Positions 14,168 through 51,643 are shown, counted from the stretch's first letter. The stretch is DNA of 64,000 bases from Bacillota bacterium (GCA_022769485.1 JALEJU010000032.1:16440-80439), one strand, 5' to 3'. The notes: generated by a model from the letters alone, not told the origin. Numbers and translations are program-made.

Positions 14168-14213
14168 AAATGATTGTAGTGCGGCGGCTTGAAAAGTGCC
14201 GAAGGAGAATGTT

Positions 14214-15224
14214 ATGGAACAGAAAATCGCGGTTTTAGGTGCGGGAAGCTGGGGGACGGCTCTGGCTATCTGTCTTTCGGAAAACGGGCATTCGGTTAAG
14301 ATGTGGGACATCAACCCGGAGCATTTGCAGGAACTGAAGGAAAAAAGGGAAAACGTACGTTATTTGCCGGGAATTGCTTTCGGAGAAAAGCTGGCCTTGG
14401 CAGACAGCCCGGAGGAAGCCGTCCGCGGCGCGGATATGGTTTTATTTTCCGTGCCCGCGCAGCATTTCCGCAGTGCGCTGGAAGGGGTAATTCCTTATCT
14501 TACGGATTCCATGGTGCTGGTTAATGTGGCCAAGGGGATTGAACAGAAATCTCTGATGAGGATCTCGGAGATCGTAAAGGAGAAGCTGCCGGAGGCGAAA
14601 TTCGCAGTGCTTTCCGGGCCTTCTCACGCGGAGGAAGTGGGCAGGAAAATACCTACCACTGTGGTAGCGGCTTCGGAAGATTTAGCGCTGGCAGAATATG
14701 TACAGGATGTATTCATGTGTGACTGGTTTCGGGTATACACCAACACGGATGTGGTCGGCGTAGAGCTGGGCGGCGCATTGAAAAATATTATCGCTTTGGG
14801 TGCGGGAATCTCCGACGGCATGGGCTATGGGGATAACACAAAGGCGGCTATGATGACCCGGGGAATTGCCGAAATGACCCGTTTGGGCACTGCCATGGGA
14901 GCGGATATCTCCACCTTTGCGGGGCTTTCGGGAATCGGCGACTTGATCGTTACCTGCTGCAGTATGCACAGCCGAAACCGCCGGTGCGGTATTTTGATCG
15001 GCCAAGGGGTAAAGCCTTCCGAAGCAACAAAGCAGGTGGGTATGGTAGTAGAGGGGATGTTCACTACGGAGGCGGCTTATCAGCTGGCTTCCAGGCTGGG
15101 CGTGGAAATGCCGATTACAGAGAGCATTTACAATACTATCAATGATAAAATCGACGCCCGGGAGGCTGTGCGTGCCTTGATGACCCGCCAGAAAAAACAC
15201 GAGACAAAAGCACAGGAGCAGTAA
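14214..15224 (+). CDS. gpsA: NAD(P)H-dependent glycerol-3-phosphate dehydrogenase
   Basis: IAVLGAGSWGTALA Rossmann motif plus LKNIIALGAG. An AAGGAGA RBS lies before ATG 14214. Confidence 0.95.
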   Translation: MEQKIAVLGAGSWGTALAICLSENGHSVKMWDINPEHLQELKEKRENVRYLPGIAFGEKLALADSPEEAVRGADMVLFSVPAQHFRSALEGVIPYLTDSMVLVNVAKGIEQKSLMRISEIVKEKLPEAKFAVLSGPSHAEEVGRKIPTTVVAASEDLALAEYVQDVFMCDWFRVYTNTDVVGVELGGALKNIIALGAGISDGMGYGDNTKAAMMTRGIAEMTRLGTAMGADISTFAGLSGIGDLIVTCCSMHSRNRRCGILIGQGVKPSEATKQVGMVVEGMFTTEAAYQLASRLGVEMPITESIYNTINDKIDAREAVRALMTRQKKHETKAQEQ

Positions 15225-15227
15225 AAA

Positions 15228-37918: not shown

Positions 37919-40384
37919 TTATTTTTTGACTTCCAGGTTCAATTCCTTGATCGCGTCCTCACGCATTTTATATTTCAGAATTTTCCCTGCGGCGTTCATG
38001 GGGAAGCTGTCGGTAAAGGAAATATAGCGGGGAATCTTGTGCTTCGCCATATTTTGACGAACGTAATCCTTGATTTCCTCTTCCGTTGCTGTTTCGCCTT
38101 TTTTCAGAATAATGCAGGCCATGATTTCTTCTCCGTATCCGGGATCCGGTACGCCGATAACCTGAACATCTTCAACCTTTGGATGGGTATAAAGGAATTC
38201 TTCGATTTCCTTGGGATAGATATTTTCGCCGCCGCGGATGATCATATCTTTTAAACGTCCTGTAATTCGGAAATTTCCTTCCGGGGTTCTGCAGGCCAGA
38301 TCTCCTGTATGCAGCCAGCCTTTCTCATCGATGGCGGCTGCAGTTGCGCCGGGCATTTTGTAATATCCTTTCATGATATTATACCCTCGGGCTATAAATT
38401 CTCCGTTTTCGCCGTCCGGCATTTCCAGACCGGTTTCCGGATCCACAATTTTACATTCGATTTCCGGAAGGGGACGCCCTACGGTACTGACCCGTACATC
38501 AATAGGGTCGTCGGTACTGCTCATGGTGCAGCCCGGGGACGCTTCCGTCTGCCCGTAAACGATGGTTATTTCCTTCATATTCATCTTTTCCTGCACATCC
38601 TGCATAACGGAGATGGGGCAGGGGCTTCCGGCCATAATCCCGGTTCGCATATGAGAGAAGTCAACACTGTTGAAATCCTTATGCTGGAGCATGGCGATAA
38701 ACATGGTCGGAACACCGTGGAAGCAGGTAATCCGTTCCTGATTGATACAGGTTAAAGCCGGCTTCGGCGAGAAATACGGCAACGGGGACAGCATAGCGCT
38801 GTGGGTCATAGCCGCGGTCATAGCCAGTACCATGCCGAAGCAGTGGAACATGGGAACCTGAATCATCATGCGATCCGCAGTAGATAAATCCATCCGGTCG
38901 CCAATGCATTTTCCGTTGTTGACTACGTTCCTGTGGGTCAGCATAACCCCTTTGGGGAAACCGGTGGTTCCGGAGGTATACTGCATATTGCATACGTCGT
39001 CCGGATGAACCTGAGCGGCTCTGCGCCATACTTCTTCCACGGGAACTTTCTGCCCAAAAGCCAGCGCCTCTTCCCAGGTGAGACAGCCTTTCTGTTTGGA
39101 AGAAACCGTAATAATGCGGCGAAGGAAGGGCAGGCGGCTGCAGTGCAGCGGCGCGTTGGAGTCGGCGGTTTCCAATTCCGGACAAAGCTCTTTAATGGCG
39201 CCGATATAGTCGGAATCCCTCCAGCCGTCTATCATGATCAGAACACGGGTATCCGATTGGCGAAGCAAGTATTCGGCTTCCCGGATTTTATATGCCGTAT
39301 TCATAGTAACTAATACCGCGCCCAATTTTACAGTAGCCCAGAAAGCGATATACCACTGAGGAACATTGGTAGCCCAAACAGCCACATGATCGCCTGCTTT
39401 TACGCCCAAAGCAATCAAAGAACGGGCAAACTGATCTACATCTTCCCGGAATTCTGCGTAAGTTCTGGTGTAATCCAGCGTGGTGTAACGGAAAGCGTAT
39501 TGATCCGGGAATTCTTCCACAAGACGGTCGAGAACCTGGGGGAACGTCAGAGAGATCAATTTATCTTTGGGCCAGATGAACCAGCCGTCGCCACGCTTAT
39601 TTTCGCAGAGGCGGCCTGCTTTTTTGTCTTTGCCCAGATACGTATTCATGTAATTTACATAATGGGGACAGATGATCTCCGGGTCGTTAAGCCCCATATT
39701 GTCTTTCTCCGGCCAGATCAGGGAAAGAAAGCCGCTGTAGCCGATGGAGTTAAGCGCACTGATCATATCGGCGAGGGGCAGCTCGCCGTCGCCGATGAGG
39801 CAGTCGTGCTTTTCACTTCCATGCCGGAAATCCCGGACATGAACGTGCTTAATATAAGCGCCCAGGTTTTTTACGGTTTCTTCCGCGCTTTCTCCTTTTA
39901 AATAAGGACCGCGGAGATTCCAGAGCGCCCCCAGCCAGTCGCTGGCGAATCGATCCAGAAGAGCGCTTAATTTGGATGTATCCGCATAAAGTCCGCGGGT
40001 TTCCATAAGCAGGATGGTATCTTCTTCCTCTGCAATGGGAATCAATTTTTCCAAAGCTTTAATGATTTCTTCTTCCTGCTGTCCCTCCTGCTTCGGAGCC
40101 GGAAGATGGACGTAAGGAATCTGCAGAGCGCCCGCCAGCATAACCGCAGATGCGGCGTCTTTAAAGTCAACAGCCGAGAGGCAGGGGACAGAGAGTTCCA
40201 TCTGATTCAGTTTTCGAATCAGGTTCTGGCTGTCCGCAATGGCGTAGGGACCTGTTAAGTAACGTTCTTTTGCGGCTTCCTGAAAGAGCAGTTCCACACC
40301 GGAAAAACCCATTTCTTTTGCCAGAGAAAAGTGTTCGGACCAGGAGTAACCGGGCCATCCATGATTTGAGTAACAGAGCTTCAT
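37919..40384 (-). CDS. fusion protein: xylose-isomerase-like TIM barrel (N, ~250 aa) plus AMP-forming acyl-CoA synthetase (C, ~560 aa)
   Basis: The N-terminal GFSGVEL...HVHVRD pattern fits sugar-phosphate isomerase/epimerase-like TIM barrels. The C-terminal part has YTSGTTGFPKGVMLTH, GYGQTE-like QTEASP, TGDL and the final KILK of the ANL superfamily. It is one continuous ORF. Confidence 0.8.
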   Translation of the reverse strand: MKLCYSNHGWPGYSWSEHFSLAKEMGFSGVELLFQEAAKERYLTGPYAIADSQNLIRKLNQMELSVPCLSAVDFKDAASAVMLAGALQIPYVHLPAPKQEGQQEEEIIKALEKLIPIAEEEDTILLMETRGLYADTSKLSALLDRFASDWLGALWNLRGPYLKGESAEETVKNLGAYIKHVHVRDFRHGSEKHDCLIGDGELPLADMISALNSIGYSGFLSLIWPEKDNMGLNDPEIICPHYVNYMNTYLGKDKKAGRLCENKRGDGWFIWPKDKLISLTFPQVLDRLVEEFPDQYAFRYTTLDYTRTYAEFREDVDQFARSLIALGVKAGDHVAVWATNVPQWYIAFWATVKLGAVLVTMNTAYKIREAEYLLRQSDTRVLIMIDGWRDSDYIGAIKELCPELETADSNAPLHCSRLPFLRRIITVSSKQKGCLTWEEALAFGQKVPVEEVWRRAAQVHPDDVCNMQYTSGTTGFPKGVMLTHRNVVNNGKCIGDRMDLSTADRMMIQVPMFHCFGMVLAMTAAMTHSAMLSPLPYFSPKPALTCINQERITCFHGVPTMFIAMLQHKDFNSVDFSHMRTGIMAGSPCPISVMQDVQEKMNMKEITIVYGQTEASPGCTMSSTDDPIDVRVSTVGRPLPEIECKIVDPETGLEMPDGENGEFIARGYNIMKGYYKMPGATAAAIDEKGWLHTGDLACRTPEGNFRITGRLKDMIIRGGENIYPKEIEEFLYTHPKVEDVQVIGVPDPGYGEEIMACIILKKGETATEEEIKDYVRQNMAKHKIPRYISFTDSFPMNAAGKILKYKMREDAIKELNLEVKK

Positions 40385-41820
40385 GATTCTTTTTCCTCAT
40401 ACACAATTTTGTTGACGGCGTTCAAATACGCGTTGATGCTGGCGCCTATAATATCAGTAGAGAGCCCGTGGCCGGAGTACAGTTTTCCATTGTGACGGAG
40501 CTTAACCAGCGCGTCGCCCATGGCTTCCCTGCCTTCGGTGACTGCCTGAATCTGGAAATCGTCCAGTTCGAAATGACGACCCAAAAGCTGTTCGATGGTA
40601 AGGAAGGCCGCGTCGATGGGGCCGTCCCCGGTGGAAACGGTTTGGCGTACTTCATCTTCCCGGTTAATTCTCACCTTTATGCAGGCGGTAGCCGCGATAG
40701 AATTCCCGCTGTTGATCACATAATGAACCAACTGGTAAGTAGGGGAAACCTGTTGGGTGCTCTCTGCGATGATCGCTTCCAGATCCCGATTATCCACTTT
40801 TTTCTTGGATGCCAGACGGTGGAATTGTCGGTAAACCTGCTCCAGATCCTTTTCTTCCAGATCGTATCCAAGCTTTTCCACCCTCCGGCGGATTACCAGC
40901 AGATCCGAATCCACGGTCAACTCTTCTTTTGCCAGGTTATCTTCTGTTTCGGGAGAACCCACCGTATGAGAAAACACGGATTTTCCGGTACGATTCATGC
41001 CCATCAGCCGTTCAATCTGCTTGCAGCTTCTTTGCAGGCCGGTAGCGTTTACTTCAAAACAGATACCCAGAGCGTCTTCCCGAACCCGAAGGGTATGGAT
41101 GAGCTCTTCTAAAGATAATGCGTTTCCGATCCCGCCGCAGGTTGTTTTTAAATGGGTGATTCCTGCGGAAACCGCGGACAGGGCGTTGGCAGTTGCCAGT
41201 CCCAGCTCATCTTTGCATTGGAAAGCCAGAGTAATATCGCTGCATTCCGGAACTTCTTTCCGCAGCTGAGATATCAGGTTCGTAATTTCCTGGGGGAGTA
41301 TTTCCCCGGCAGAGTCGCATAATGTTACGGTTTTTACTCCGCTTTTAATTGCTGCGGCTACTGCCTTATGCAGAAATTCACTTTCGCTTCTGGTAGCGTC
41401 TTCAGCAGAAAATTCCACGTCGGGGCAAAGGGAAACGCAGTAAGCGGACAGCTCTTCAATGCGTTCCAGCATAGCGGCCGGTTTTGTGTGGTGAACGTAT
41501 TCCATCTGAATTGCGGAAGTGGGAACAACCAGGTTGATTCTCGGATGTGCCGCTCCGGACAGCGCTTTCCAGGCTTTGTCGATGGCATCCCGATCCAGTC
41601 CTACCGGAACACAGAGTACGGAATTTTTTAAAAAACCGGCTATGGTGCGCACCGTAATGGTTCCCACCTGTTCGTCTTTAAGGAATCCGGTTTCGATCAC
41701 ATCCACATGAAGTTTTTCTAAAATCTTTGCAATTTCAATCTGTTCTTTAAAGCTCAAGCCGGAAGCAGAATCCAATTCTCTTTCCCGCAGAGTAATATCG
41801 GTAATACGAATTTTTTGCAC
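40381..41820 (-). CDS. 2-isopropylmalate synthase paralog with degenerate metal-binding residues and a retained LeuA-type C-terminal domain
   Basis: HMGL-like barrel (EFSAEDATR, DSAG) plus a LeuA_dimer-like C-terminus. The DTTLRDGEQ motif reads DITLRERE, and the HxHND motif reads QCKDE (41200-41220). It overlaps the downstream gene as ATGA. Confidence 0.75.
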   Translation of the reverse strand: MQKIRITDITLRERELDSASGLSFKEQIEIAKILEKLHVDVIETGFLKDEQVGTITVRTIAGFLKNSVLCVPVGLDRDAIDKAWKALSGAAHPRINLVVPTSAIQMEYVHHTKPAAMLERIEELSAYCVSLCPDVEFSAEDATRSESEFLHKAVAAAIKSGVKTVTLCDSAGEILPQEITNLISQLRKEVPECSDITLAFQCKDELGLATANALSAVSAGITHLKTTCGGIGNALSLEELIHTLRVREDALGICFEVNATGLQRSCKQIERLMGMNRTGKSVFSHTVGSPETEDNLAKEELTVDSDLLVIRRRVEKLGYDLEEKDLEQVYRQFHRLASKKKVDNRDLEAIIAESTQQVSPTYQLVHYVINSGNSIAATACIKVRINREDEVRQTVSTGDGPIDAAFLTIEQLLGRHFELDDFQIQAVTEGREAMGDALVKLRHNGKLYSGHGLSTDIIGASINAYLNAVNKIVYEEKES

Positions 41821-41836: not shown

Positions 41837-42913
41837 TTATACGGTTACGGTCCATCCCATTTCATCTTTTACTGCGCCGGTCTGAATTCCGTAAAGCGTG
41901 TCATAAAGCTTCTGGGAAACAGGGCCGACTTCTCCTTCTCCGATTTCCAGTGACTGGCCTTTGTACACCAATCTGCCGATGGGGGAGATTACCGCAGCGG
42001 TTCCCGTCGCAAATACTTCCTGCAGCCGTCCTTCTTTTGCAGCTGTAAAAAGATCTTCCATAGAGAGACGTTCTTCCTTGACCGTATAACCCCAGTTTCT
42101 CAGGAGCTGCAGAACGGAATTTCTGGTAATGCCGGGTAAAATAGTGCCTGTCAAGGGAGCGGTGATGATCTCGTTATCGATCATAAAAAACGCATTGGAG
42201 GTTCCGATTTCTTCTACATATTTCTTTTCGATGGCATCCAGCCAGAGAACCTGCTCACAGCCGTTGGCATGGGCTTTCTCCTGCGCTTTCAGAGCACCCG
42301 CGTAGTTTCCGCCTACTTTTGCGTAGCCGGTTCCGCCGGGAACGGATCGAACGTATTCGTCTTCCACGAAAATGCTGTTGGCTACCAGACCGCCGTTGCT
42401 GCTTTCATAATAAGAGCCTACGGGGCTGAGAATGATCACAAAGAGATAGTGGTTGGAGGGTCTTACGCCTAAAAACGCCTCATCGCCGATGATAAAGGGG
42501 CGAATATAGAGAGCGGTTCCGGGCTGATCCGGAATCCAGTCCCGTTCCACATCTACCAGGGCCTTGATACAAGCGACATAAAGATCTTCATCCATCTGCG
42601 GCATGCACATGCGGTCGTTTGTGGCGTTGGTACGCTTTGCATTCATATCCGGACGGAACAGAAGAACTTTACCTTCCGCAGTTTTATATGCTTTCAGCCC
42701 TTCGAACATCTCTTGACCGTAATGGAAAACCACTGCGGCAGGATCCATCTGCAGGGGACCGTAAGGAACGATGCGGCCGTCATGCCAGCCTTTTTCTGTA
42801 TCATAATCCATCAGGAACATATGGTCGGTGAAAATTTTACCGAAACCAAGGGACTTCGGATCCGGTTTTTCTTTCGGAGTATCAGTGAGTGTTTTTTTGA
42901 ATTCGTAATTCAT
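41837..42913 (-). CDS. ilvE: branched-chain amino acid aminotransferase
   Basis: 358 aa, fold-type IV PLP enzyme pattern (FEGLKAY, GGTGYAKVGGNYA, GITR), as in long-form IlvE. Confidence 0.9.
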   Translation of the reverse strand: MNYEFKKTLTDTPKEKPDPKSLGFGKIFTDHMFLMDYDTEKGWHDGRIVPYGPLQMDPAAVVFHYGQEMFEGLKAYKTAEGKVLLFRPDMNAKRTNATNDRMCMPQMDEDLYVACIKALVDVERDWIPDQPGTALYIRPFIIGDEAFLGVRPSNHYLFVIILSPVGSYYESSNGGLVANSIFVEDEYVRSVPGGTGYAKVGGNYAGALKAQEKAHANGCEQVLWLDAIEKKYVEEIGTSNAFFMIDNEIITAPLTGTILPGITRNSVLQLLRNWGYTVKEERLSMEDLFTAAKEGRLQEVFATGTAAVISPIGRLVYKGQSLEIGEGEVGPVSQKLYDTLYGIQTGAVKDEMGWTVTV

Positions 42914-42929
42914 TTTTTACCTCCATTAT

Positions 42930-43463
42930 CTATTCACATTTGAATGCTTTGATCGCTCTGCGGTTCAAATCAAGGTGCTTTGCTTTCTTTCCGGAGAAGA
43001 CTTTCTGCAGGACGTATTCGATGGCTTCTTCCGATAAAATTTTGGTAGCGGATAAAATGGCTCCGAACATAACCATGTTGGCCGCCTTCGTATTTCCCAG
43101 TTCGTTTGCCAGTTCGCTGCAGGGAACTTTATAGATGGAAATATCTGACCGGATGGGTTCTGTCTGAACCAGAGACTGGTTGATAAACAGATTTCCGCCG
43201 GGTTTAACCAAGCGTTCAAAGCTTTGCAGAGACGGTTGATTCATAGCGATCACGGTGTCTGCCTCGTAAATCATGGGGCAGTTGATTTTTTCATCGGATA
43301 CGATTACGGTGCAGTTGGCCGTGCCTCCCCGCATCTCGGGACCGTAGGAAGGCATAAAGGTAACTTCTTTGTTATCATACATACCGCCGTATGCCAGCAT
43401 TTGTCCCATAAGCAGGATGCCCTGGCCGCCGGCACCGGCGAAAAAGAATTTATTCGTACTCAT
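42930..43463 (-). CDS. 2-oxoacid:ferredoxin oxidoreductase, gamma subunit
   Basis: FAGAGGQGILLMG and SYGPEMRGG motifs. Confidence 0.85.
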   Translation of the reverse strand: MSTNKFFFAGAGGQGILLMGQMLAYGGMYDNKEVTFMPSYGPEMRGGTANCTVIVSDEKINCPMIYEADTVIAMNQPSLQSFERLVKPGGNLFINQSLVQTEPIRSDISIYKVPCSELANELGNTKAANMVMFGAILSATKILSEEAIEYVLQKVFSGKKAKHLDLNRRAIKAFKCE

Positions 43464-43464
43464 A

Positions 43465-44208
43465 TTAGTCCTCCTCCGGTGTTCTGAAATTGCCTAACGG
43501 ATAATAAGGAATCATTTCATCTCTCATCCACTGTAAAGCGTCTGCGGGTGTTTTGCCCCAGTTGGTCGGACAGGAAGAAAGGAATTCCACAAATGTAAAG
43601 CCCAAACCTTTTTCCTGAATTTCCAGCGCTTTCATAACGGCCTTTTTGGCTTGCCGAACGTGAGCGGGGGTATCCAGAGAAACCCGTTCTACGAATACCG
43701 CACCTTCCAGCGTGGCGATCAGCTCGGATACGCGGATGGGAGCGCCAGCCTGTTCTTTTGTGCGTCCGTTGACGGAAGTGGTAGAGCGCTGTCCCAGCAG
43801 GGTGGTGGGAGCCATCTGGCCGCCGGTCATACCGTAGATACAGTTGTTGATAAAAAATGTAGTAAAGTGTTCGCCTCTTGCTGCGGCGTGGATGATTTCC
43901 GCCATACCGATGGAAGCCAGGTCGCCGTCGCCCTGGTATGTGAAAACGATGCGGTCAGGCTGTGCCCGGCGGATGCCGCTGGCAACAGCGGGAGCTCTGC
44001 CGTGAGCCGCTTCGCACATATCTATATTCATAAATTGATGAGCCAGTACACTGCATCCGATTGGTGCAACGCCGATGGTGTCGCCTAATTTTCCTTTTTC
44101 CTCAAGACATTCCATAATCAGGCGATGGGCAATGCCGTGGGTGCAGCCGGGGCAGTAACTTGTGGAAACGGGAAGCATTCCCTTTGTATAAGTAAATACC
44201 GGTTTCAT
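43465..44208 (-). CDS. 2-oxoacid:ferredoxin oxidoreductase, beta (TPP-binding) subunit
   Basis: CPGCTHG, GDGD and NNCIYGMTGGQ motifs. Confidence 0.9.
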   Translation of the reverse strand: MKPVFTYTKGMLPVSTSYCPGCTHGIAHRLIMECLEEKGKLGDTIGVAPIGCSVLAHQFMNIDMCEAAHGRAPAVASGIRRAQPDRIVFTYQGDGDLASIGMAEIIHAAARGEHFTTFFINNCIYGMTGGQMAPTTLLGQRSTTSVNGRTKEQAGAPIRVSELIATLEGAVFVERVSLDTPAHVRQAKKAVMKALEIQEKGLGFTFVEFLSSCPTNWGKTPADALQWMRDEMIPYYPLGNFRTPEED

Positions 44209-45284
44209 TTTAATCCCTCCAAAATCTTCTTCGCTTTTTCTGCAACTTCCAGGGAAGTGGGAATGATGCCGCCGGTTCTGTGAATCAGTTCAACCGGGAA
44301 TCGTCCGCACACGCCCATTTTTACGTCCTGGAGCATCTGTCCCATAGATAATTCCGCTGAAATGACGACTTTCGTTTTGCTTTCAATCCGGTCAAATGCT
44401 TCGTACGGGAAGGGCCACAGAGAAATGGGACGGATCATGCCTGCTTTGATTCCTTCTTTTGCTAAGAGCTCTATAACCTCGTGAATCAGACGAGCCATGG
44501 TTCCAAAGGCAGTGAATACGATGTCCGCATCTTCTAAGCCGATGCATTCGTAACGAACCAGTTCTTTTTCAGCTTGTGCATACTTTTCATACAGCTTTTC
44601 CACATGAACTTCCAGGTCTTCCGGTTTTAAACGGAGGGATTTTACCACGCTGCGGTTTTCTTTGTAGCCGCTGCCGCTGGCCGCCCAGGGTTTTACTTTG
44701 GGAACATCGCCGGGGAGAAGGGGGGCTTTGGGTTCGGGAAGAACGACAGGCTCCATCATCTGTCCCATAATACCGTCGGCGAGAATCATAACAGGGTTTC
44801 TCCAATAGTCTGCCATAGAGGGTGCTTCGTAGAGAATATCCACGGCTTCCTGGATTGTGGAAGGCGCGAAAACCGGAATCCGGTAGTCGCCGTTTCCGCC
44901 GCCTCTGGTAACCTGAAAATAGTCTGCTTGTCCGGGCTGGATGCCGCCGATTCCCGGACCGCAGCGGGATACGTTCAAAAGTACCGCCGGAACTTCTGCG
45001 GAAGCCAGAAAGCTCATTCCTTCCTGCATGAGGGCAATACCGGGAGAGGAAGAGGAAATAAAACAGCTTCCTCCTGCGGCTCCGCAGCCGTAGGCCATAT
45101 TGATTGCTCCCAGTTCACTTTCCGCTTGCAGGAACGTTCCGCCTCTTTCGGCCAGTTCCCTGGACATATATTCGGGAATTTCACTCTGAGGGGTAATCGG
45201 GTAGCCGAAATAATAACGGCAGCCGCCTCGGATGACTGCTTCTGCGAAAGCTTCGTTTCCTTTCATTAATACCTTTTCTGCCAT
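44205..45284 (-). CDS. 2-oxoacid:ferredoxin oxidoreductase, alpha subunit
   Basis: GNEAFAEAVIRGGCRYYFGYPITPQSEI is the typical N-terminus. It overlaps the beta-subunit gene by 4 nt. Confidence 0.9.
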   Translation of the reverse strand: MAEKVLMKGNEAFAEAVIRGGCRYYFGYPITPQSEIPEYMSRELAERGGTFLQAESELGAINMAYGCGAAGGSCFISSSSPGIALMQEGMSFLASAEVPAVLLNVSRCGPGIGGIQPGQADYFQVTRGGGNGDYRIPVFAPSTIQEAVDILYEAPSMADYWRNPVMILADGIMGQMMEPVVLPEPKAPLLPGDVPKVKPWAASGSGYKENRSVVKSLRLKPEDLEVHVEKLYEKYAQAEKELVRYECIGLEDADIVFTAFGTMARLIHEVIELLAKEGIKAGMIRPISLWPFPYEAFDRIESKTKVVISAELSMGQMLQDVKMGVCGRFPVELIHRTGGIIPTSLEVAEKAKKILEGLK

Positions 45285-45502
45285 TATGCTTCCTCCTCAA
45301 AAATTTCAATCGCGCCATCGGGGCACATTACAGCGCAGCTGGTGCAGCCGACGCATTCTTCCTGCCGCTCCACAGACGCGGGGAAATATCCTTTGCCGTT
45401 AACGTGGGAACCCATGACGATCAGGTCTTTGGGGCAAACTGTTTTGCACAGTTCACAGCCTTTGCATTTGTCCGCATCAATGCGAACCACATATTTTGCC
45501 AT
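45284..45502 (-). CDS. 2-oxoacid:ferredoxin oxidoreductase, delta (2x[4Fe-4S] ferredoxin) subunit
   Basis: Two cysteine clusters, CKGCELCKTVCP and CVGCTSCAVMCP. ATG 45502 is preceded by AAAGGAG. It overlaps the alpha-subunit gene start. Confidence 0.85.
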   Translation of the reverse strand: MAKYVVRIDADKCKGCELCKTVCPKDLIVMGSHVNGKGYFPASVERQEECVGCTSCAVMCPDGAIEIFEEEA

Positions 45503-45559
45503 TAGTGATGCTCCTTTCAAATCGTAACAATAGTTCTATATTAATTGAATTTAATCTGC

Positions 45560-46282
45560 TTATTTGTCCAGCCATTCCGGGCGCATATATAATTGAAGCG
45601 GAAAAATCAATGTGTCCAAAAATTCCAGCTCCTGCGCAGAGACCAGAGGTTCCGGAAACGTATCACAGATAATGGGTTTTCCGGTTTTTTCGGAAAGCGC
45701 TTTGCAGAGTTCATGTCCTTTTTTTATATCCTCCGCTGTGGTTTCCCGAAGCAGGTGTGTATTGTTGATCAGACCTTTTACCTCTGTTTCCAGTTCTGTT
45801 TCGATGGCGTACAGGTGTTTTAAAGCACCGTTTAAATTTCTGGTTTCCGGGCGGTTTCGGTTAATGACGGTCAGAAGGATGGATTCTTCTGTTTGAAAAT
45901 ACTTTCGAAATTGCTTCAGTACCCGAGCGCCGCTGTCGTTTCCGCCGATATCCAGAATCGCGCAGCAGTCGGGATTTTCTAAAGGCGTCCGGATGGATGC
46001 GGACAGAGCGGGAAGCTCTGCTGTGATTTCTCCCCGGTACGCACTTCCGAATACCTGAATCCCGCTGGCCTCCAGAATTTCCGTACGTTCCCGGGAGCGG
46101 AAATAAGGATTTGCAACGTCTAAGTCTACTAAAGAGACTTCCTTAAAAGGACAGTGCATTTCATCGTTTTTTAATGCCAGAGCCAGATTGACCGCAAACT
46201 CTGTTTTTCCGCTACCGTAATGTCCGGTTATGACAATAATTCTCTTTTTCGTGTCAAAGAGATAGGGCATAGGCTGTTTCAT
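45560..46282 (-). CDS. P-loop NTPase (MinD/ParA/CooC-like), first gene of the oxidoreductase operon
   Basis: Walker A ITGHYGSGKTEF, followed by DLD and DIGGND patterns. I recognise no specific family. Confidence 0.6.
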   Translation of the reverse strand: MKQPMPYLFDTKKRIIVITGHYGSGKTEFAVNLALALKNDEMHCPFKEVSLVDLDVANPYFRSRERTEILEASGIQVFGSAYRGEITAELPALSASIRTPLENPDCCAILDIGGNDSGARVLKQFRKYFQTEESILLTVINRNRPETRNLNGALKHLYAIETELETEVKGLINNTHLLRETTAEDIKKGHELCKALSEKTGKPIICDTFPEPLVSAQELEFLDTLIFPLQLYMRPEWLDK

Positions 46283-46325: not shown

Positions 46326-46360
46326 TTATAAAAGAAACCCCGCTCACTAAGAACGGGGTT
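46326..46360 (-). terminator. intrinsic terminator / candidate attenuator between the leader ORF and the operon
   Basis: On the minus strand, AACCCCG pairs with CGGGGTT around an 11-nt loop and is followed by TCTTTTAT. It ends about 45 nt before the first operon ATG, and I see no promoter in between. Confidence 0.55.
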
Positions 46361-46383
46361 GTGCTTACAACTATGATTATAAA

Positions 46384-46536
46384 CTAACAATTGCCTATTC
46401 TCAGTGTACCTGTGTTTTCATCAGATTTAGCTGCCAGCAGAATGCTAAGCAACAGAACCAGACCCAGCAATACAACGATTGCAGGGCTAATCAGCAGATC
46501 CAGGTTGTTGAGAACATGCATATAAGTTTTCATCAT
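46384..46536 (-). CDS. unannotated 50-codon ORF rich in Leu/Ile/Val (MMKTYMHVLNNLDLLISPAIVVLLGLVLLLSILLAAKSDENTGTLRIGNC); leader-peptide candidate
   Basis: The ORF runs from ATG 46536 to TAG 46384-46386, downstream of a minus-strand promoter and upstream of the terminator. By my count 22 of its 50 residues are L, I or V. The RBS is weak. Confidence 0.4.
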   Translation of the reverse strand: MMKTYMHVLNNLDLLISPAIVVLLGLVLLLSILLAAKSDENTGTLRIGNC

Positions 46537-46711: not shown

Positions 46712-46990
46712 GTAACTTAATAGAAACAAAGGCTGTGACGAAGACGGTTGAATTTTTTCGTTTCCAGAGAGTCGGCGGGCGCTGTGAGCCGATAATGAGA
46801 AAATTCGGGAACCTATCCCTTCCGAGCCGGGAGCCCGAACTCGCAGGAAAGTAGACGCTCTCCGTAATCGCTGCGTAAAAGCGAAAGGCTTGATAGAGCC
46901 TGTGAGGTGGTATGCTTTGCATGCAATTTGAGTGGTACCGCGGATTGTCAGATTCGTCTCAAAGAAAAAAATTCTTTGGGGCGTTTTTTT
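46712..46990 (+). promoter_or_regulatory. T-box riboswitch leader (Stem I, AGTA box, F-box-like element, T-box core, terminator)
   Basis: GA/K-turn motif (GUGA at 46734-46737 with GA at 46824-46825). AG bulge AGAGAG at 46766-46771 with a distal loop ending GUGA. AGTA at 46850-46853 and CCGTAATCG at 46862-46870. T-box core AATTTGAGTGGTACCGCGG at 46925-46943. A 12-bp terminator spans 46955-46983, followed by seven T. Confidence 0.85.
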
Positions 46991-47014: not shown

Positions 47015-49282
47015 ATGCAGCAGACAAATGAAATAAGTATGTTACGCGACGTAGCGGCCAGAATCCAGGAACTGAGAGAAATCTCCGGATATACCGCAGA
47101 GGAGATGGCGCAGAAAACCGATGTGAGCGCAGAGCAGTACAAAAGTTATGAAAGCGGAAATGTGGATATTCCGTTTACCTTTATTCATAAGTGCGCGCTT
47201 TGCTTCGGGGTGGAAATTTCCGACTTGATGGAAGGAACCAGCGCTCATTTAACATCTTATACGGTTACGAGAAAGGGAGCAGGTCAGATTACCGCCAGGG
47301 AAGAGGGAATTGAAATTCGAAATCTGGCTACCATGTTCCATAAAAAGATAGCGGAGCCGTATTGGGTAAAATATGAATATTCCGTTGAGCAGCAGTCGAA
47401 GCCCATTCATTTAACGACGCACAAAGGGCAGGAATTTGACTTTGTCCTGAGCGGACAATTAAAAGTGCAGGTAGGCACTCATACGGAAATCCTGTCCGAG
47501 GGCGACAGCATCTACTACGACAGCGCTACGCCTCACGGCATGATCGCTGTAGGCGGAGAAGACTGCGTGTTCTGCGCGGTGGTTCTTTCCGGCGAAGAAA
47601 ACGAAGAAAATCAGATGGGTGAAACAATCGTAGCGGCAAAGCAGACGGAGCATCTGATTTATGAAAACTTTATCCTGCCTCTCGAAGATGAAAACGGCGC
47701 ATTGCAGTCCATCGGGTTCCACAATGAAGATAAATTTAATTTTGCGTTTGACGTTGTAGATGAGCTGGCAAAGAAAAAGCCCAATAAGCTGGCCATGATC
47801 CATCTGGATAAGAACAAGAAGGAACGAAGATTTACTTTTGACGAAATCAGAAAGGCGTCTAACCGTACGGCAAACTATTTTAAGTCCATGGGGATTCAAC
47901 GAGGTGACTGCGTTATGCTGGTCTTAAAACGGCATTATCAGTTCTGGTTTGCCATATTGGCACTTCATAAGATCGGAGCGATTGCGGTGCCTGCGCCCAA
48001 CCAGCTTTTAACAAAGGATTTTGAATACCGTTTCCAATCGGCCGGAATCAAAGCCATCGTCTGCACGGCGGACGGCCAGACGGCGGAGTGCATAGACGAA
48101 GCGCAGCTTACATCTCCCAGCCTTGAATTGAAAGTCATGGTGGGCGGAAATCGACCCGGATGGCGGAACTTTGACGAAGAGTATCTGATGTACAGCGGAA
48201 AATTCGACAGAAGTGAGGACTGTCCCTGCGGCGACGATCCCATGGTTATGTTCTTCAGCTCCGGCACCACGGGTTATCCGAAGATGGCACAGCATAGCTA
48301 TAAATATCCGTTGGGACATTTCGTTACGGCGAAATACTGGCATTGCGTGGATCCCCACGGGCTGCACCTGACCATTTCCGATACAGGCTGGGGAAAATCT
48401 CTTTGGGGCAAGCTGTACGGGCAGTGGATGTGCGAAGCGGCAATTTTCGTGTATGACTTTGATCGCTTTGATGCCAACGATATCCTGCCGCTGTTCAAGC
48501 AGTATAAGATAACAACATTCTGCGCGCCGCCTACTATGTACCGCTTTATGATCAAAGAAGATCTGTCCCGGTTTGACCTGTCCAGTATCCGGCATGCCAC
48601 TACGGCAGGCGAGGCGCTGAATCCGGAAGTATATCATCAATTTAAAAAGGCGACGGGACTTTCTGTTATGGAAGGATTCGGTCAGACGGAAACCACTTTG
48701 CTGATCGGCAATCTGGTCGGCGATACGCCGAAAATCGGTTCCATGGGAAAAGCAAATCCGCTGTTTGATGTAGAGCTTATGACTTCTGACGGAAAACTGG
48801 CCGAAGTGGGAGAAACGGGCGAGATTGTAGTTCGGACGAAGGAAAATCTGCCTGTGGGTATTTTCCTGGGATACTACAGGGATGAGGAAAAGACGAGAGC
48901 ATCCTGGCATGATGGCTATTATCATACGGGAGATACGGCCTGGAAAGACGAGGACGGTTATTTCTGGTATGTAGGCCGGGTAGACGATTTGATCAAATCC
49001 TCCGGATACCGGATCGGGCCCTTCGAAATCGAAAGCGTTATCATGGAGCTTCCTTATGTGTTGGAATGCGGCGTATCGGCTGCCCCGGATGAGATCAGAG
49101 GGCAGGTCGTAAAGGCCAGCATCGTCTTGGTAAAAGGCAAGGAAGGTACGGAAGAATTAAAGAAAGAAATCCAAAACTATGTAAAGAAACGGACGGCCCC
49201 GTATAAGTATCCCAGAATCGTTGTGTTCAGGGACGAGCTGCCTAAGACGATCAGTGGAAAAATCCAGAGAAACAAATTATAA
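47015..49282 (+). CDS. fusion protein: XRE-type HTH plus cupin plus AMP-forming (medium-chain-like) acyl-CoA synthetase
   Basis: N-terminal HTH (ISGYTAEEMAQKTDVSAEQYKSYESG). A cupin (GQEFDFVLSGQLKVQVG...YYDSATPHG). Then ANL motifs (FFSSGTTGYPK, GFGQTE, YHTGD, and SGKIQR at the end). Confidence 0.8.
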   Translation: MQQTNEISMLRDVAARIQELREISGYTAEEMAQKTDVSAEQYKSYESGNVDIPFTFIHKCALCFGVEISDLMEGTSAHLTSYTVTRKGAGQITAREEGIEIRNLATMFHKKIAEPYWVKYEYSVEQQSKPIHLTTHKGQEFDFVLSGQLKVQVGTHTEILSEGDSIYYDSATPHGMIAVGGEDCVFCAVVLSGEENEENQMGETIVAAKQTEHLIYENFILPLEDENGALQSIGFHNEDKFNFAFDVVDELAKKKPNKLAMIHLDKNKKERRFTFDEIRKASNRTANYFKSMGIQRGDCVMLVLKRHYQFWFAILALHKIGAIAVPAPNQLLTKDFEYRFQSAGIKAIVCTADGQTAECIDEAQLTSPSLELKVMVGGNRPGWRNFDEEYLMYSGKFDRSEDCPCGDDPMVMFFSSGTTGYPKMAQHSYKYPLGHFVTAKYWHCVDPHGLHLTISDTGWGKSLWGKLYGQWMCEAAIFVYDFDRFDANDILPLFKQYKITTFCAPPTMYRFMIKEDLSRFDLSSIRHATTAGEALNPEVYHQFKKATGLSVMEGFGQTETTLLIGNLVGDTPKIGSMGKANPLFDVELMTSDGKLAEVGETGEIVVRTKENLPVGIFLGYYRDEEKTRASWHDGYYHTGDTAWKDEDGYFWYVGRVDDLIKSSGYRIGPFEIESVIMELPYVLECGVSAAPDEIRGQVVKASIVLVKGKEGTEELKKEIQNYVKKRTAPYKYPRIVVFRDELPKTISGKIQRNKL

Positions 49283-49338: not shown

Positions 49339-49416
49339 CCTTCTGCTGTCATGGCTTTTCTCTTGTATATATGCTATTATAAAAGAACAATGTATGTTGC
49401 AGAAAGGGTAAAATTT

Positions 49417-50694
49417 ATGGAAAGACAGAAAATAGAAACGATTTGCATACAGGAAGGATATAAGCCGGGGAACGGTGAACCGAGAATTCTTCCCATTTAT
49501 CAGAGTACAACCTATAAATATGATTCTGCGGATCATTTAGGCAAGCTGTTTGATTTGGAAGTGCCGGGACATATGTATACGAGAATTTCCAATCCTACGG
49601 TGGAATATGTGGAGCAGAAAATCGCCGCGCTGGAAGGCGGGGTGGGCGCTATGTGCACCTCTTCCGGTCAGGCGGCCAATCTCGTGGCCGTTATGAATAT
49701 TGCCGGCTGCGGTGATAACATCATTTCGCTGTCTTCCATTTACGGAGGAACAATAAACCTGTTTGCGGTAACTATGAAACGTTTCGGAATCGACGTTCGC
49801 TTTGTGAATCCGGACATGACGGATGAAGAGATTGAGCCGTTTTTTGATGAGAATACAAAGGCTGTTTTCGGGGAAACCATTGCAAATCCGGCGCTGAAAG
49901 TATTGGATATCGAGCGTTATGCAAACTTAGCGCACAAACATAATGTTCCTCTTTTGGTGGACAACACATTCGCCACTCCGGTTTTGTGCAGACCTTTTGA
50001 ATTCGGTGCGGATATCGTGATTCATTCTACTACAAAATATATGGACGGGCATGCCAGCGTAGTGGGCGGCGCAGTCGTTGACAGCGGTAATTTTGACTGG
50101 GAAGCAGCGGGCGGTTTTCCGGGGCTGACGGAACCGGACGAATCGTATCACGGTGTGGTTTATACAAGAGATTTCGGAAAAGCCGCTTATATCAGCAAGG
50201 CGCGCTGTCAGCTTATGCGGGATTTGGGCACAACACCTCAGCCCATCGCTGCTTTTATTTTAAATCAGGGACTGGAAACATTGGCACTGCGGATGGAACG
50301 CCATTGTGAAAACGCTATGCAGGTTGCGGAGTATCTGGAGAAGCATGAAAAGATTTCCTGGGTAAATTATCCGAAACTGCCCGGCTCCGACCAATATGAA
50401 CTGGCGGAAAAATATCTGCCCAAAGGCGCCTGCGGCGTAATTTCTTTCGGCGTAAAAGGCGGAAGAGAGGCAGCGGTAAAGTTTATGGACTCTCTGAAGC
50501 TTGCGCAGATTGTGGTGCACGTTGCGGACGCAAGAACCAGCGTGCTGCATCCGGCCAGCACCACACACCGCCAATTAACGGATGAGCAGCTGAAGGATGC
50601 CGGAATCGGCGCAGATCTGGTTCGTCTGTCCGTGGGGATCGAACATATTTCAGATATACTTGCGGATTTAGAACAGGCTCTGAACCAATTGTAG
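49417..50694 (+). CDS. metY: O-acetylhomoserine sulfhydrylase (aminocarboxypropyltransferase)
   Basis: Cys/Met-metabolism PLP enzyme with the PLP lysine in [10 protein letters not shown]. Its length and N-terminus (ETICIQEGY) are typical of MetY. The start is at ATG 49417. Confidence 0.85.
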
Positions 50695-50728
50695 TTTTTA
50701 TCGTAAAAGAGAAAGAGGGGGCTTAACT

Positions 50729-51643
50729 GTGCCGATTAAAATTCCCAGCGGACTTCCCGCAGAAGCCACGCTGAAACAAGAGAAAATTTTTGTTATGGAC
50801 GAAGCCAGAGCGCTGTCTCAGGATATTCGTCCTTTGCGCATTGCGGTTCTGAATCTCATGCCTACAAAAATTGCCACGGAAACACAAATTGCCAGGCTGA
50901 TCGGCAATACGCCGCTGCAGTTGGAACTGGAGCTGATTTATACCCAAAGCCATCAGGCGAAAAACATTCCTCTGGAACATTTGCTGGCGTTCTACAAAAC
51001 GTTTGATGAGATAAAGGATCAAAAGTTCGACGGCTTGATTATCACAGGGGCGCCGGTGGAAAAATTGGAATTTGAAGATGTGGATTACTGGCCGGAACTC
51101 TGTGAAATTATGGAATGGTCGAAAACTCATGTGTTCAGTACCTTCCATATCTGCTGGGGCGCACAGGCGGGAATGTATTATCATTTCGGCATTCACAAAT
51201 ATTTGTTGGATGAAAAGCTGTTCGGAGTCTATCCCCATGAAGTGGAAGCGCAGAATGCTGTATTATTCCGCGGCTTTGATGATACGTTTATGGTTCCTCA
51301 GTCGCGGCATACAACCGTGAAACGGGAAGAGATTGAAGCTGTTTCGGATTTGTGGATTTTGGCGTCTTCAAAGGAAGCAGGGGTTTATGCGGTAGCTTCG
51401 CCCCGTTACAAGCAGGTGTTTATTACCGGGCACTCCGAATATGACAGAGAGACACTGGAGAAGGAGTATCTGAGGGATAAAAAAGCGGGACTTCCTATTT
51501 CTGTTCCCGTAAATTATTATCCCAATGATGATGATACGCAAAGACCGATTATGAGCTGGAAAGGGCACGCGCATCTGCTGTATTCCAATTGGCTGAACTA
51601 CGTTTATCAGGAAACACCTTACAATTTGGATGAAATCCAATAG
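50729..51643 (+). CDS. metA: homoserine O-acyltransferase (MetA family)
   Basis: [11 protein letters not shown]...[10 protein letters not shown]...[10 protein letters not shown]...HICWGAQA are hallmark MetA motifs. The start codon is GTG. Confidence 0.9.

Follow-up and report, generated by a model that had tools for sequence, protein, structure and literature searches.

What has a protein built like 2-isopropylmalate synthase (IPMS, LeuA) been kept for once the residues that make such proteins enzymes are gone? The question is raised by a 64,000-nucleotide stretch of DNA from a Bacillota bacterium (GCA_022769485.1, JALEJU010000032.1:16440-80439), called the window here. A sequence-only reading of one of its genes had proposed either a pseudoenzyme or an enzyme with different chemistry. 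The features on which the answer depends are listed in Table 1.

Table 1. Features of the LeuA-like locus in the window
Feature	Coordinates	Strand	Basis or remark
LeuA-like pseudoenzyme	40381..41820	-	479 aa; HMGL-like barrel, degenerate linker, LeuA_dimer regulatory domain
Degenerate active-site helix D8-I-T-L-R12-E13-R14-E15-L16 (canonical DTTLRDGEQ)	41773..41799	-	structure alignment
Former HxH metal motif (HCH(D/N)DLG), now Q201-C-K203-D-E-L-G	41200..41220	-	structure alignment
Residues 276-297, FSH remnant at the place of the HCS_D2 subdomain with catalytic His/Tyr	40930..40995	-	predicted disordered
LeuA-type regulatory (allosteric) domain, residues 341-479	40384..40800	-	Pfam and conservation
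Partner protein, TIM-ligase fusion	37919..40384	-	821 aa; start codon overlaps LeuA-like stop (ATGA)
Xylose-isomerase-like TIM barrel of partner	39590-40384	-	domain of 821-aa fusion
AMP-forming acyl-CoA ligase of partner	37919-39589	-	domain of 821-aa fusion
Branched-chain amino acid aminotransferase IlvE	41837..42913	-	NF009897, 486.7 bits (cut-off 307)
2-oxoisovalerate:ferredoxin oxidoreductase (VOR) genes	42930..45520	-	four genes, VorC/VorA/VorB/VorD
VorC	42930-43463	-	
VorA	43465-44208	-	
VorB	44205-45284	-	NF005507, 465 bits (cut-off 399)
VorD ferredoxin	45284-45520	-	
MinD/Mrp-like P-loop NTPase, first gene of the operon	45560..46282	-	profile match
Operon leader: 50-codon ORF (13 Leu, 4 Ile, 4 Val), terminator-like hairpin 24 nt further	46336..46536	-	
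T-box leader of the divergent HTH-cupin-ligase gene, AUC (Ile) specifier	46726..46964	+	87.3 bits, just below the Rfam gathering score of 93; E = 9e-20
HTH(XRE)-cupin domain fused to MbcS-like short branched-chain acyl-CoA ligase	47015..49282	+	

Fold, family and lost catalytic apparatus

The LeuA-like ORF begins with GTG, 7 nt downstream of a GGAGG Shine-Dalgarno sequence, and its product is matched in Pfam by HMGL-like (PF00682; residues 3-248, 149.8 bits) and by LeuA_dimer (PF08502; residues 342-472, 116.9 bits, model positions 2-130 of 131), the latter bearing out the LeuA-type C-terminal domain of the sequence-only reading. True LeuAs score 302-324 bits against HMGL-like, compared with 150 here, and up to 126 against LeuA_dimer, compared with 117. 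The (beta/alpha)8 HMGL-like barrel of Claisen-condensing DRE-TIM metallolyases is present according to both Pfam and the AF2 model, in which it superposes intact on 3ewb (TM-score 0.94, 3ewb-normalised; rmsd 1.5 A), and structures of the DmpG/DmpF type are among the fold matches obtained by structure search. The top full-length NCBIfam match is the leuA_bact model, with scores that do not reach the LeuA equivalog cut-offs (368.9 against 532 for NF002086, 337.8 against 598.7 for TIGR00973).

At least 80 species-level genomes of gut and rumen anaerobes have an orthologue; the cluster is carried by rumen and gut Oscillospiraceae, Ruminococcus and their relatives, and full-length orthologues at 41-70% identity are present in 80 genomes and 120 protein clusters. 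As the degenerate pattern is common to the 120 database homologues and 80 genome loci, it is not a matter of chance, and the gene is under purifying selection rather than decaying.

Motifs were placed by aligning the protein to the solved LeuA/MAMS structures 3ewb, 3rmj and 6e1j, which put both degenerate motifs, DITLRERE for DTTLRDGEQ and QCKDE for HxHND, where they had been claimed to lie, with no shifted motif, while the landmarks EFSAEDATR (residues 136-144) and DSAG (169-172) are kept, as had also been noticed. The roles of residues in the active-site helix were taken from Arg89, Asp90 and Gln93 of MAMS, and the divalent-metal triad is formed by the Asp (or Glu) after the conserved Arg together with His-x-His on strand 7 (PMC11532901). 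Here the three ligand positions hold E13, Q201 and K203, the last two being the equivalents of H288 and H290, and L16 stands in place of Gln93. The claim that all three ligands have been replaced therefore stands for the two histidines; at the first motif, where the ligand is the Asp after the Arg, the change to Glu is conservative and not in itself a loss. Since homocitrate synthases use Glu at this very position, only the two His are unambiguously gone from the triad.

Post-barrel subdomain I (HCS_D2), which carries the general-base His and the stacking Tyr, is missing as well: a Pfam search found no HCS_D2 (PF22617) match in the LeuA-like protein, and three of four canonical LeuAs gave 70-95 bits, the fourth a partial match of 31.6 bits. 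Residues 276-308 do not align to residues 368-426 of 6e1j, residues 276-297 have pLDDT <50 in the AF2 model, the region consists mainly of gaps across homologues, and GIGERAGN of canonical LeuA is reduced to GIGNA. Compared with LeuA of Listeria (3ewb), Neisseria (3rmj) and M. tuberculosis (1sr9/3fig), the protein thus shares the barrel fold and the C-terminal LeuA_dimer allosteric domain but has no His-x-His, a degenerate RDGEQ helix and no HCS_D2, and is about 30 aa shorter.

Among 81 species-level orthologues the former metal positions vary freely (E/Q/A/K/L at 13, E/S/R/Q/H at 201, S/K/A/Q/G at 203), as does the equivalent of Glu227 (E/V/D). The window copy retains the equivalents of MAMS Arg89 and Glu227; the otherwise invariant Arg (Arg89 of MAMS, Arg80 of MtIPMS), R12 in this copy, is Lys in 26 of the 81, and the MAMS/IPMS mutants R89K, E227A/D and H388A/D/E/Q are inactive (PMC11532901). 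Positions 13-16, 140, 201 and 203 change freely, the surroundings of the old active site are the most variable region, and the active-site helix is modelled by AF2 with low confidence. Loss of catalysis is well supported. Across the same 81 sequences a dozen barrel positions show little or no variation, three of them occupied by family-specific residues: Q105 in place of a canonical H, C168 (in 72 of 81) in place of P, and K225 in place of E. Going by conservation, these twelve positions could mark a pocket for a ligand, or else a new active site, and not mere scaffold.

Constraint on the regulatory domain

The C-terminal LeuA allosteric (dimerisation) domain is near-canonical, with invariant helix-cap motifs G398-DGPIDA and G450-x-G452-x-S454-T455-D456. 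Pairwise identity averages 65% in this domain, 45% in the barrel and 26% in the linker, and the share of columns conserved at 90% or more falls from 35% to 16% and 0%. Purifying selection is concentrated on the regulatory domain, the best-conserved part of the family. Catalytic residues have thus been lost from a gene still under purifying selection, and of the two options in the sequence-only reading the pseudoenzyme is the one favoured by the free variation of the metal ligands, the deleted subdomain and the conserved regulatory domain.

An allosteric role of this domain in LeuA is documented (PMC9860122, PMC11057210, PMC13381585): in IPMS the leucine carboxylate is held between two such helix ends (PMC11057210), and the domain also functions as a stand-alone amino-acid sensor (PMC13381585). 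Conservation of the helix-cap motifs, taken with this known behaviour, leads us to predict that the LeuA-like protein binds the end product and alters the activity of its partner.

Partner ligase, neighbouring genes and leucine T-boxes

The ATGA coupling to the TIM-ligase gene that had been reported for the window is real (nt 40381-40384) and general. A TIM-ligase gene lies directly 3' of the LeuA-like gene in 76 of 80 genome loci, and in the other four no TIM match was found, the contig ending about 100-400 nt past the LeuA-like gene. The two ORFs overlap by 4 nt (-4) in 34 of 78 measured loci, a set that takes in three additional ones, and are separated by -4 to +15 nt in 67 of them. The LeuA-like gene is, then, obligately adjacent to a ligase gene. 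The ligase domain belongs to a PRK12583-like subfamily of ANL enzymes, and its nearest unfused relatives (45-52% identity) bear generic names only; the putative metal ligands of the fused TIM barrel are kept in most orthologues and lost in the window copy.

A ligase, a 2-oxoacid:ferredoxin oxidoreductase and a branched-chain amino acid (BCAA) aminotransferase are encoded together in the window operon, and the same set is found in about 25 of 80 loci; in 24 related loci the P-loop NTPase gene keeps its place 5' of the Vor genes. Besides the TIM-ligase, recurrent neighbours are limited to IlvE, VorDBAC, the P-loop protein, the HTH-cupin regulator and PFOR. None of leuB, leuC or leuD turns up repeatedly next to the gene in the 80 loci; its constant companion is the TIM-ligase fusion. 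Methionine-biosynthesis genes adjoin the cluster.

At least 35 related loci have a T-box motif 70-150 nt ahead of the LeuA-like gene, on its upstream side. All 11 T-boxes read by covariance-model alignment (cmscan) have a leucine specifier, CUC or CUG; with a motif heuristic 21 calls were uniquely Leu, four were ambiguous with a Leu option in each, ten T-boxes went unread and none was uniquely non-Leu. In several loci the leucine T-box precedes the order LeuA-like-TIM-ligase-IlvE-P-loop-Vor. The LeuA-like genes of these relatives belong to a leucine T-box regulon, and a link to leucine supply is well supported. The window operon, in which the LeuA-like copy is sixth, has no T-box on its own strand; its leader ORF and hairpin form a possible candidate attenuator. 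The T-boxes of nearby MbcS-like ligases are of the Ile or Val type, apart from one of the Leu type. A T-box leader switches its gene on in response to uncharged cognate tRNA, a sign of amino-acid shortage, and this fits synthesis and not degradation; the T-box logic is the one argument for the putative anabolic direction of flux.

Alternative roles and a proposed leucine sensor

It is extremely unlikely that the protein, though divergent, still works as a 2-isopropylmalate or related alkylmalate synthase in an operon for ordinary leucine synthesis, even if its best family matches are LeuA models, the window copy has kept R12, E140 and S170, homocitrate synthases can use Glu as a metal ligand, and the leucine T-box found upstream in relatives would suit a genuine leuA equally. 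Both His ligands and HCS_D2 are lost, Arg is replaced by Lys in a third of orthologues, the equivalent point mutants are inactive (PMC11532901), all scores fall far under the LeuA cut-offs, and leuB/C/D do not recur near the 80 loci. A catabolic cluster is very improbable too; BCAAs would here be fermented through IlvE and then VOR to acyl-CoA, with the ligase reversed or scavenging and the LeuA-like protein sensing excess leucine and activating it. Both IlvE and VOR can run in either direction, and clostridia use genes of these types for the oxidative fermentation of BCAAs; however, the T-box leaders respond to shortage, AMP-forming ligases normally run towards the thioester, and the adjoining methionine-biosynthesis genes also speak against this reading.

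The protein may instead be an enzyme with new chemistry, metal-free or at a different site, in which K225, C168 and Q105 with the retained R12, D141, R144 and D169 act, possibly in concert with the TIM barrel, on the acyl-CoA or acyl-adenylate that the fused ligase makes. The intact barrel, its dozen near-invariant positions and its family-specific residues are in keeping with this, and DRE-TIM barrels, including the DmpG/DmpF type found among the fold matches, are known to channel to CoA-dependent partners. We consider it unlikely all the same: the old active-site region is the most variable, its helix is poorly modelled, the acetyl-CoA/catalytic subdomain is deleted, the barrel is far less conserved than the regulatory domain, and ligase, VOR and IlvE already make a complete pathway with no need of an extra reaction. 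Distinctly unlikely, finally, is a purely structural protein, a scaffold or chaperone stabilising the TIM-ligase or a tether for a VOR/IlvE metabolon, devoid of sensing. Strict adjacency and translational coupling would agree with such a role, neither the LeuA-like barrel nor, in this organism, the fused TIM barrel looks catalytically active, and LeuA is natively a domain-swapped dimer (PMC9860122) that could dimerise the ligase, but conservation peaks in the ligand-binding motifs of the regulatory domain and not on the general surface, which is hard to explain if there is no ligand.

The reading we favour, and hold at about even confidence, is that the LeuA-like protein is a non-catalytic, leucine-sensing regulatory partner of the ligase that starts an isovalerate-to-leucine salvage route. 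A paralogue of bacterial IPMS stripped of metal binding and of the catalytic subdomain, with its allosteric domain kept in fully conserved form, would be made in fixed proportion to the TIM-ligase through translational coupling, and would most likely bind it as a regulatory subunit. The ligase would convert isovalerate to isovaleryl-CoA, VOR would form 2-oxoisocaproate from this by reductive carboxylation, IlvE would yield leucine by transamination, and bound leucine would throttle the ATP-consuming first step. The link to the ligase that is seen is a genetic one; we infer the physical complex, leucine binding, the direction of the effect on the ligase, and isovalerate as the substrate.

Such an arrangement has a parallel in HisZ: this inactive paralogue of HisRS acts as regulatory subunit of short-form ATP-phosphoribosyltransferase, on which it confers histidine feedback. 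Both are catalysis-stripped paralogues of enzymes that natively bind the pathway's amino acid, and both are encoded beside the first, ATP-consuming enzyme; the folds and partners are unrelated, and complex and feedback are demonstrated for HisZ, whereas those of the LeuA-like protein are putative. The acetohydroxyacid synthase small subunits IlvH and IlvN likewise are separate polypeptides providing a BCAA-binding allosteric site to a catalytic partner, and IlvH has served as a valine sensor (PMC13381585); they are, however, ACT-domain proteins not derived from enzymes, and their partner is a ThDP enzyme. The neighbouring HTH-cupin-ligase has as its best NCBIfam match MbcS of Staphylococcus aureus (PMC10026030, PMC11167679), at a score of 434 against an equivalog cut-off of 850. 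MbcS activates 2-methylbutyrate and isobutyrate (PMC10026030), the precursors expected for isoleucine and valine arms; the S. aureus enzyme, however, feeds fatty-acid synthesis and not amino-acid synthesis, has neither an HTH-cupin fusion nor a LeuA-like partner, and belongs to a different ANL subfamily from the TIM-fused ligase. Carboxylation of isovalerate is known biochemically from rumen bacteria (Allison et al. 1962, 1966, cited in PMC7356843), and the cluster encodes matching steps of acid activation, ferredoxin-dependent reductive carboxylation and transamination; this classical work consists of labelling and enzymology, for which no gene assignments were found, and a LeuA-derived component was no part of it. 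A literature search found no paper on the LeuA-like/TIM-ligase system.

Taken together, the leucine T-boxes of relatives and the IlvE/VOR neighbourhood place the pseudoenzyme in a concrete physiological context, in which the LeuA-like/ligase pair probably controls leucine synthesis from isovalerate in gut and rumen bacteria. The HTH-cupin-MbcS-like ligase of the window is proposed as the isoleucine arm of the same system. More tentatively, a LeuA-derived pseudoenzyme acting as allosteric leucine sensor of the TIM-ligase may represent the leucine arm of a three-armed, T-box-gated system, with HTH-cupin-fused MbcS-like ligases as the Ile and Val arms, by which gut and rumen anaerobes rebuild each BCAA from the matching volatile fatty acid via VOR and IlvE. 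If true, this would be the first gene-level account, feedback control included, of an isovalerate carboxylation pathway known since the 1960s.

Domain content and former active site of the LeuA-like protein

The LeuA-like protein is 479 residues long, its reading frame opening with a GTG start 7 bases after GGAGG. Pfam recognises in it an HMGL-like barrel (residues 3–248, 149.8 bits) and a LeuA_dimer domain (residues 342–472, 116.9 bits) and no HCS_D2, and its top NCBIfam matches are 2-isopropylmalate synthase (IPMS) models, all of which score far under their curated cut-offs (368.9 against 532, and 337.8 against 598.7). True LeuAs reach 302–324 bits for the HMGL-like barrel and up to 126.5 bits for LeuA_dimer, and HCS_D2 is found at 70–95 bits in three of the four canonical LeuAs tested, with a 31.6-bit partial match in the fourth. 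Compared with true LeuAs, the barrel signal is therefore halved and the regulatory domain near-canonical; Pfam scores stand in here for the per-domain conservation of true LeuAs, as most of those retrieved were truncated sequences or short forms from Lactobacillaceae. Many of these Lactobacillaceae "2-isopropylmalate synthases" (approximately 388 aa) consist of barrel and HCS_D2 without the regulatory domain, and are thus a mirror image of the LeuA-like protein, from which HCS_D2 is gone.

Residues were mapped by alignment to solved chains of LeuA and of MAMS, a related characterised enzyme (3ewb, 3rmj, 6e1j). The alignment bore out the motif changes proposed in the sequence-only reading, namely DTTLRDGEQ to DITLREREL and HCH(D/N)DLG to QCKDELG, as well as the EFSAEDATR and DSAG landmarks it had recognised. 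That reading also held an Asp and two His metal ligands to be lost, which is correct for both His residues, whereas the Asp has changed conservatively to E13; homocitrate synthases have Glu at the equivalent position. In MAMS, whose active site is shared by IPMS, the essential metal is bound by Asp90, His288 and His290, the 2-oxoacid is held by Arg89 and Thr257, CoA is bridged by Gln93 and His388, and the general base, His388, is stacked on Tyr399, itself positioned by Glu227; R89A/K/Q, E227A/D and H388A/D/E/Q mutants are inactive (PMC11532901). The segment of 6e1j containing His388 and Tyr399 (residues 368–426) lies opposite residues 276–308 of the LeuA-like protein, where there is no alignment.

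Catalytic positions of MAMS, their equivalents in the LeuA-like protein and residue counts among 81 orthologues
MAMS residue	LeuA-like protein	State	Residues in orthologues
Arg89	R12	kept	R48, K26
Asp90	E13	conservative change	E34, Q24, A5, K3, L3
Gln93	L16	lost	
Glu227	E140	kept	E23, V22, D18
Thr257	S170	conservative change	
His288	Q201	lost	E25, S17, R9, Q8, H6
His290	K203	lost	S51, K9, A6

In the AlphaFold2 model (mean pLDDT 85, with residues 276–297 disordered at pLDDT < 50) the LeuA fold is predicted to be intact, the barrel superposing on 3ewb with a target-normalised TM-score of 0.94 and an rmsd of 1.5 Å. Foldseek placed full-length M. tuberculosis LeuA structures among the top matches of the full model, and it is on this search that the link to MtLeuA rests, phmmer with the regulatory domain alone against the PDB giving chance matches only.

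Orthologue family and its conservation

The sequence-only reading had proposed a search for orthologues sharing the substitutions and a record of their neighbours; what was found is a conserved family in which the former catalytic positions vary and the neighbour is the TIM-ligase, a fusion of TIM barrel and acyl-CoA ligase. A word-indexed search yielded, besides one identical sequence, 120 full-length homologues (48–70% identity), all of which have PF00682 and PF08502 without HCS_D2. A scan of species-representative genomes gave 80 loci at 41–60% identity over the whole length, besides 518 further pattern matches, which may include true LeuAs. The hosts are mostly Oscillospiraceae, Acutalibacteraceae, Ruminococcus and Lachnospiraceae of the gut and rumen, with a few Bacteroidales, Holdemanella, Senegalimassilia and Peptococcaceae bins; Sporobacter termitidis DSM 10068 is a carrier available in culture. 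A decaying pseudogene was ruled out, the reading frame being intact and conserved across every genome examined.

Across 81 orthologues the old catalytic positions change freely, and the mean pairwise identity is 65% in the regulatory domain, 45% in the barrel and only 26% in the former subdomain I, with 35%, 16% and 0% of columns, respectively, conserved at ≥90%. Invariant or near-invariant barrel positions are D8, E43, S102, E107, Y108, E136, D141, R144, T166, C168, D169 and K225, and three family-specific swaps of canonical residues are H to Q105, P to C168 (72/81) and E to K225. In the regulatory domain the motifs G398-DGPIDA and G450-x-G452-x-S454-T455-D456 are invariant, and they lie at the N-termini of the two helices in the predicted model; in IPMS the leucine carboxylate is bound between two such helix ends (PMC11057210), and in CimA the LeuA regulatory domain acts as an autonomous amino-acid sensor (PMC13381585). 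The conservation pattern shows that selection now acts mainly on the allosteric domain of the LeuA-like protein.

Operon partners and T-box leaders

Features of the window operon and of the divergent genes beside it
Feature	Coordinates	Strand	Remarks
TIM-ligase fusion	40384-37919	-	821 aa; xylose-isomerase-like TIM barrel and AMP-forming acyl-CoA ligase
TIM domain of the fusion	39590-40384	-	
LeuA-like gene	41820-40381	-	sixth in operon
IlvE	42913-41837	-	over curated NCBIfam cut-off
VorB, VorA, VorC	45284-42930	-	VorB over curated NCBIfam cut-off
VorD ferredoxin	45520-45284	-	
P-loop NTPase	46282-45560	-	first operon gene; 240 aa
Terminator-like hairpin	46360-46336		GC-rich
Operon leader with ORF	46336-46536	-	50 codons; 13 Leu, 4 Ile, 4 Val
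T-box	46726-46964	+	AUC (Ile) specifier; 87 bits, just under Rfam gathering score
HTH-cupin-ligase	47015-49282	+	755 aa; HTH-XRE and cupin fused to MbcS-like acyl-CoA ligase
O-acetylhomoserine sulfhydrylase, homoserine O-acyltransferase	49351-51643	+	methionine synthesis

The ATGA coupling to the TIM-ligase claimed from sequence was confirmed, the 3' end of the LeuA-like gene overlapping the ATG of the next frame at 40381–40384. The TIM-ligase lies directly 3' of the LeuA-like gene in 76 of the 80 loci, and in the other four the contig ends approximately 100–400 nt past that gene, with no TIM match in the stretch. In 78 measured loci, which take in three fetched later than the 80-locus set, the distance from the LeuA-like stop to the TIM-ligase start is -4 in 34, -1 in 13 and between -4 and +15 in 67. 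Judged by gene order and these junctions, the two genes are co-inherited and apparently co-translated.

TIM and ligase share an ORF in 66 loci and are split in a single case, which looks like a frameshift. The TIM domain used as query on its own retrieved two fragments, both belonging to one frameshifted long-read contig. Within the fusion, mean pairwise identity is unusually high in the ligase domain (74%) as against 46% in the TIM domain. Exhaustive searching with the ligase domain brought up relatives without the fusion, at 45–52% identity and under generic names only, and solved relatives (fatty-acyl-, feruloyl- and malonyl-CoA synthetases) do not fix the substrate. Most orthologues keep xylose-isomerase-type ligands in the TIM domain (E/K128, D156, H158/H159, H182, E223); the window copy has N156, R158, G159 and I223, so that this barrel looks catalytically dead here, though retained.

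All-against-all clustering of ORFs around the loci identified as recurrent neighbours IlvE (27 loci), VorB/A/C of 2-oxoisovalerate:ferredoxin oxidoreductase (VOR; 22–25 loci), the P-loop protein directly upstream of the Vor genes (24 loci), an HTH-XRE and cupin regulator 3' of VorC (14 loci) and a PFOR-type oxidoreductase immediately after the ligase (6 loci). The gene order of the window operon is repeated in two complete genomes. The LeuA-like gene is thereby grouped with the enzymes that the conversion of a branched acyl-CoA to an amino acid requires; leuB, leuC and leuD were not among the recurrent neighbours, and canonical leuA is absent from the window and from 83 fetched loci. The P-loop protein is MinD/Mrp-like with weak family matches, and may serve VOR as a factor for Fe-S maturation or assembly. 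In the PFOR loci (L031, L051, L058, L059, L073 and L079; hosts including Bacteroidales, Roseburia, Eubacterium and Senegalimassilia bins) a single chain of approximately 1170 aa, at about 11950–15750, replaces the four-subunit VOR.

T-boxes activate the genes behind them in response to uncharged cognate tRNA. In at least 35 loci a T-box core, GGTGGTACCGCG, precedes the LeuA-like start by 70–150 nt. In Rfam covariance-model alignments of 11 leaders the specifier is CUC in ten and CUG in one, all leucine codons; a motif-plus-stem heuristic, whose calls agree with the cmscan alignments, read CTC or CTG in 21 leaders; four were ambiguous, each with a Leu option, ten gave no reading, and none was assigned uniquely to an amino acid other than Leu. 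A Leu T-box leader precedes the LeuA-like-TIM-ligase-IlvE-P-loop-Vor string in L025, L033, L036, L039 and L067, and in L065 it heads the whole ligase-P-loop-Vor-IlvE-LeuA-like-TIM-ligase string. From these leaders, leucine-tRNA starvation is predicted to induce the pair in the relatives, and the pair would therefore serve leucine supply. In L054 (3139–3390) a low-scoring T-box (68.5 bits) lies before P-loop/Vor; its specifier reads, with low confidence, as GAA in the model columns or, with a shift, as CUG.

No riboswitch or T-box was detected upstream of the window operon on the minus strand, the only intergenic T-box pointing the opposite way. The Leu-rich leader ORF stops 24 nt short of the hairpin, which lies about 50 nt before the first gene; a comparable LIV-rich upstream ORF was seen in L003 only among related loci, and folding of the window leader gave no clear antiterminator. 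ORF and hairpin may constitute attenuation replacing the T-box of the relatives, or the ORF may be a chance hydrophobic one, and control of the operon may lie with this leader ORF or with the divergent HTH-cupin protein.

That second ligase type, with its N-terminal HTH-cupin, is found in the window and in many related loci, and recalls BirA in joining a DNA-binding domain to an adenylate-forming enzyme. In NCBIfam it comes closest to MbcS (434 bits, under the 850 cut-off), which in S. aureus activates 2-methylbutyrate and isobutyrate (PMC10026030). Its genes carry Ile (AUC) T-boxes in the window, L074, L048 and L063 and Val (GUA or GUC) T-boxes in L001, L074, L048 and L054, with Ile-gated and Val-gated copies in tandem in L048 and L074. 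On this picture each branched-chain amino acid would have an acid-activating arm of its own, and the three would run in parallel into a common VOR and IlvE. In the window this ligase gene is followed by methionine-synthesis genes, which makes the stretch an amino-acid-biosynthesis neighbourhood.

Proposed role in leucine supply

The LeuA-like protein is very probably not an IPMS, and it is likely to work with the ligase in leucine supply. In the mechanism we propose, the ligase would activate isovalerate, VOR would carboxylate isovaleryl-CoA to 2-oxoisocaproate and IlvE would convert this to leucine, the isovalerate carboxylation route being that of rumen bacteria (Allison 1962, 1966, as cited in PMC7356843). 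The LeuA-like protein would bind the ligase, perhaps via the TIM barrel, and relay to the ATP-consuming first step, as feedback, whether its regulatory domain is occupied by leucine. Such an arrangement would mirror HisZ and also canonical LeuA, which catalyses the committed step specific to leucine and is subject to feedback inhibition via that same domain (PMC9860122). The chances of this sensor-subunit mechanism being right as a whole are about even.

Among other explanations, a new catalytic activity using K225, C168 and Q105 is unlikely, for although the invariant barrel residues are real, the protein varies most around the old active site and there is no missing reaction to fill. It is also rather improbable that the protein is a pure scaffold, which would leave the top conservation of the ligand-binding motifs unexplained. 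A catabolic role of the cluster, being at odds with the T-box logic, is highly improbable, and least credible of all is a working but divergent LeuA, against which stand the lost residues, the scores and the lack of leuBCD.

Pseudoenzyme regulatory subunits are of an already known kind, yet no description seems to exist of this LeuA-derived case, of its partner or of its setting: a full-text literature search found no paper on an IPMS pseudoenzyme, the TIM-ligase fusion or this T-box-gated cluster, nor a gene assignment for the isovalerate activation step or its control. To our knowledge no pseudoenzyme was known in the DRE-TIM/LeuA family, in which the LeuA-like protein would be the first; it would add a clear case to the enzyme paralogues that have been turned into sensors, with only the allosteric domain of LeuA in working order.

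Many fibre-degrading rumen and gut bacteria require branched-chain volatile fatty acids. The labelling that showed the conversion of isovalerate into leucine is sixty years old, and the locus provides a testable gene set for this pathway. PGAP withholds the LeuA name from such proteins, a homologue being annotated as [quoted passage not shown], whereas other sources (JGI/IMG and a Sporobacter termitidis record) label the same proteins 2-isopropylmalate synthase. Such labels may therefore lead reconstructions from gut and rumen MAGs to assume, wrongly, that an organism makes leucine de novo when it may instead depend on isovalerate cross-feeding.
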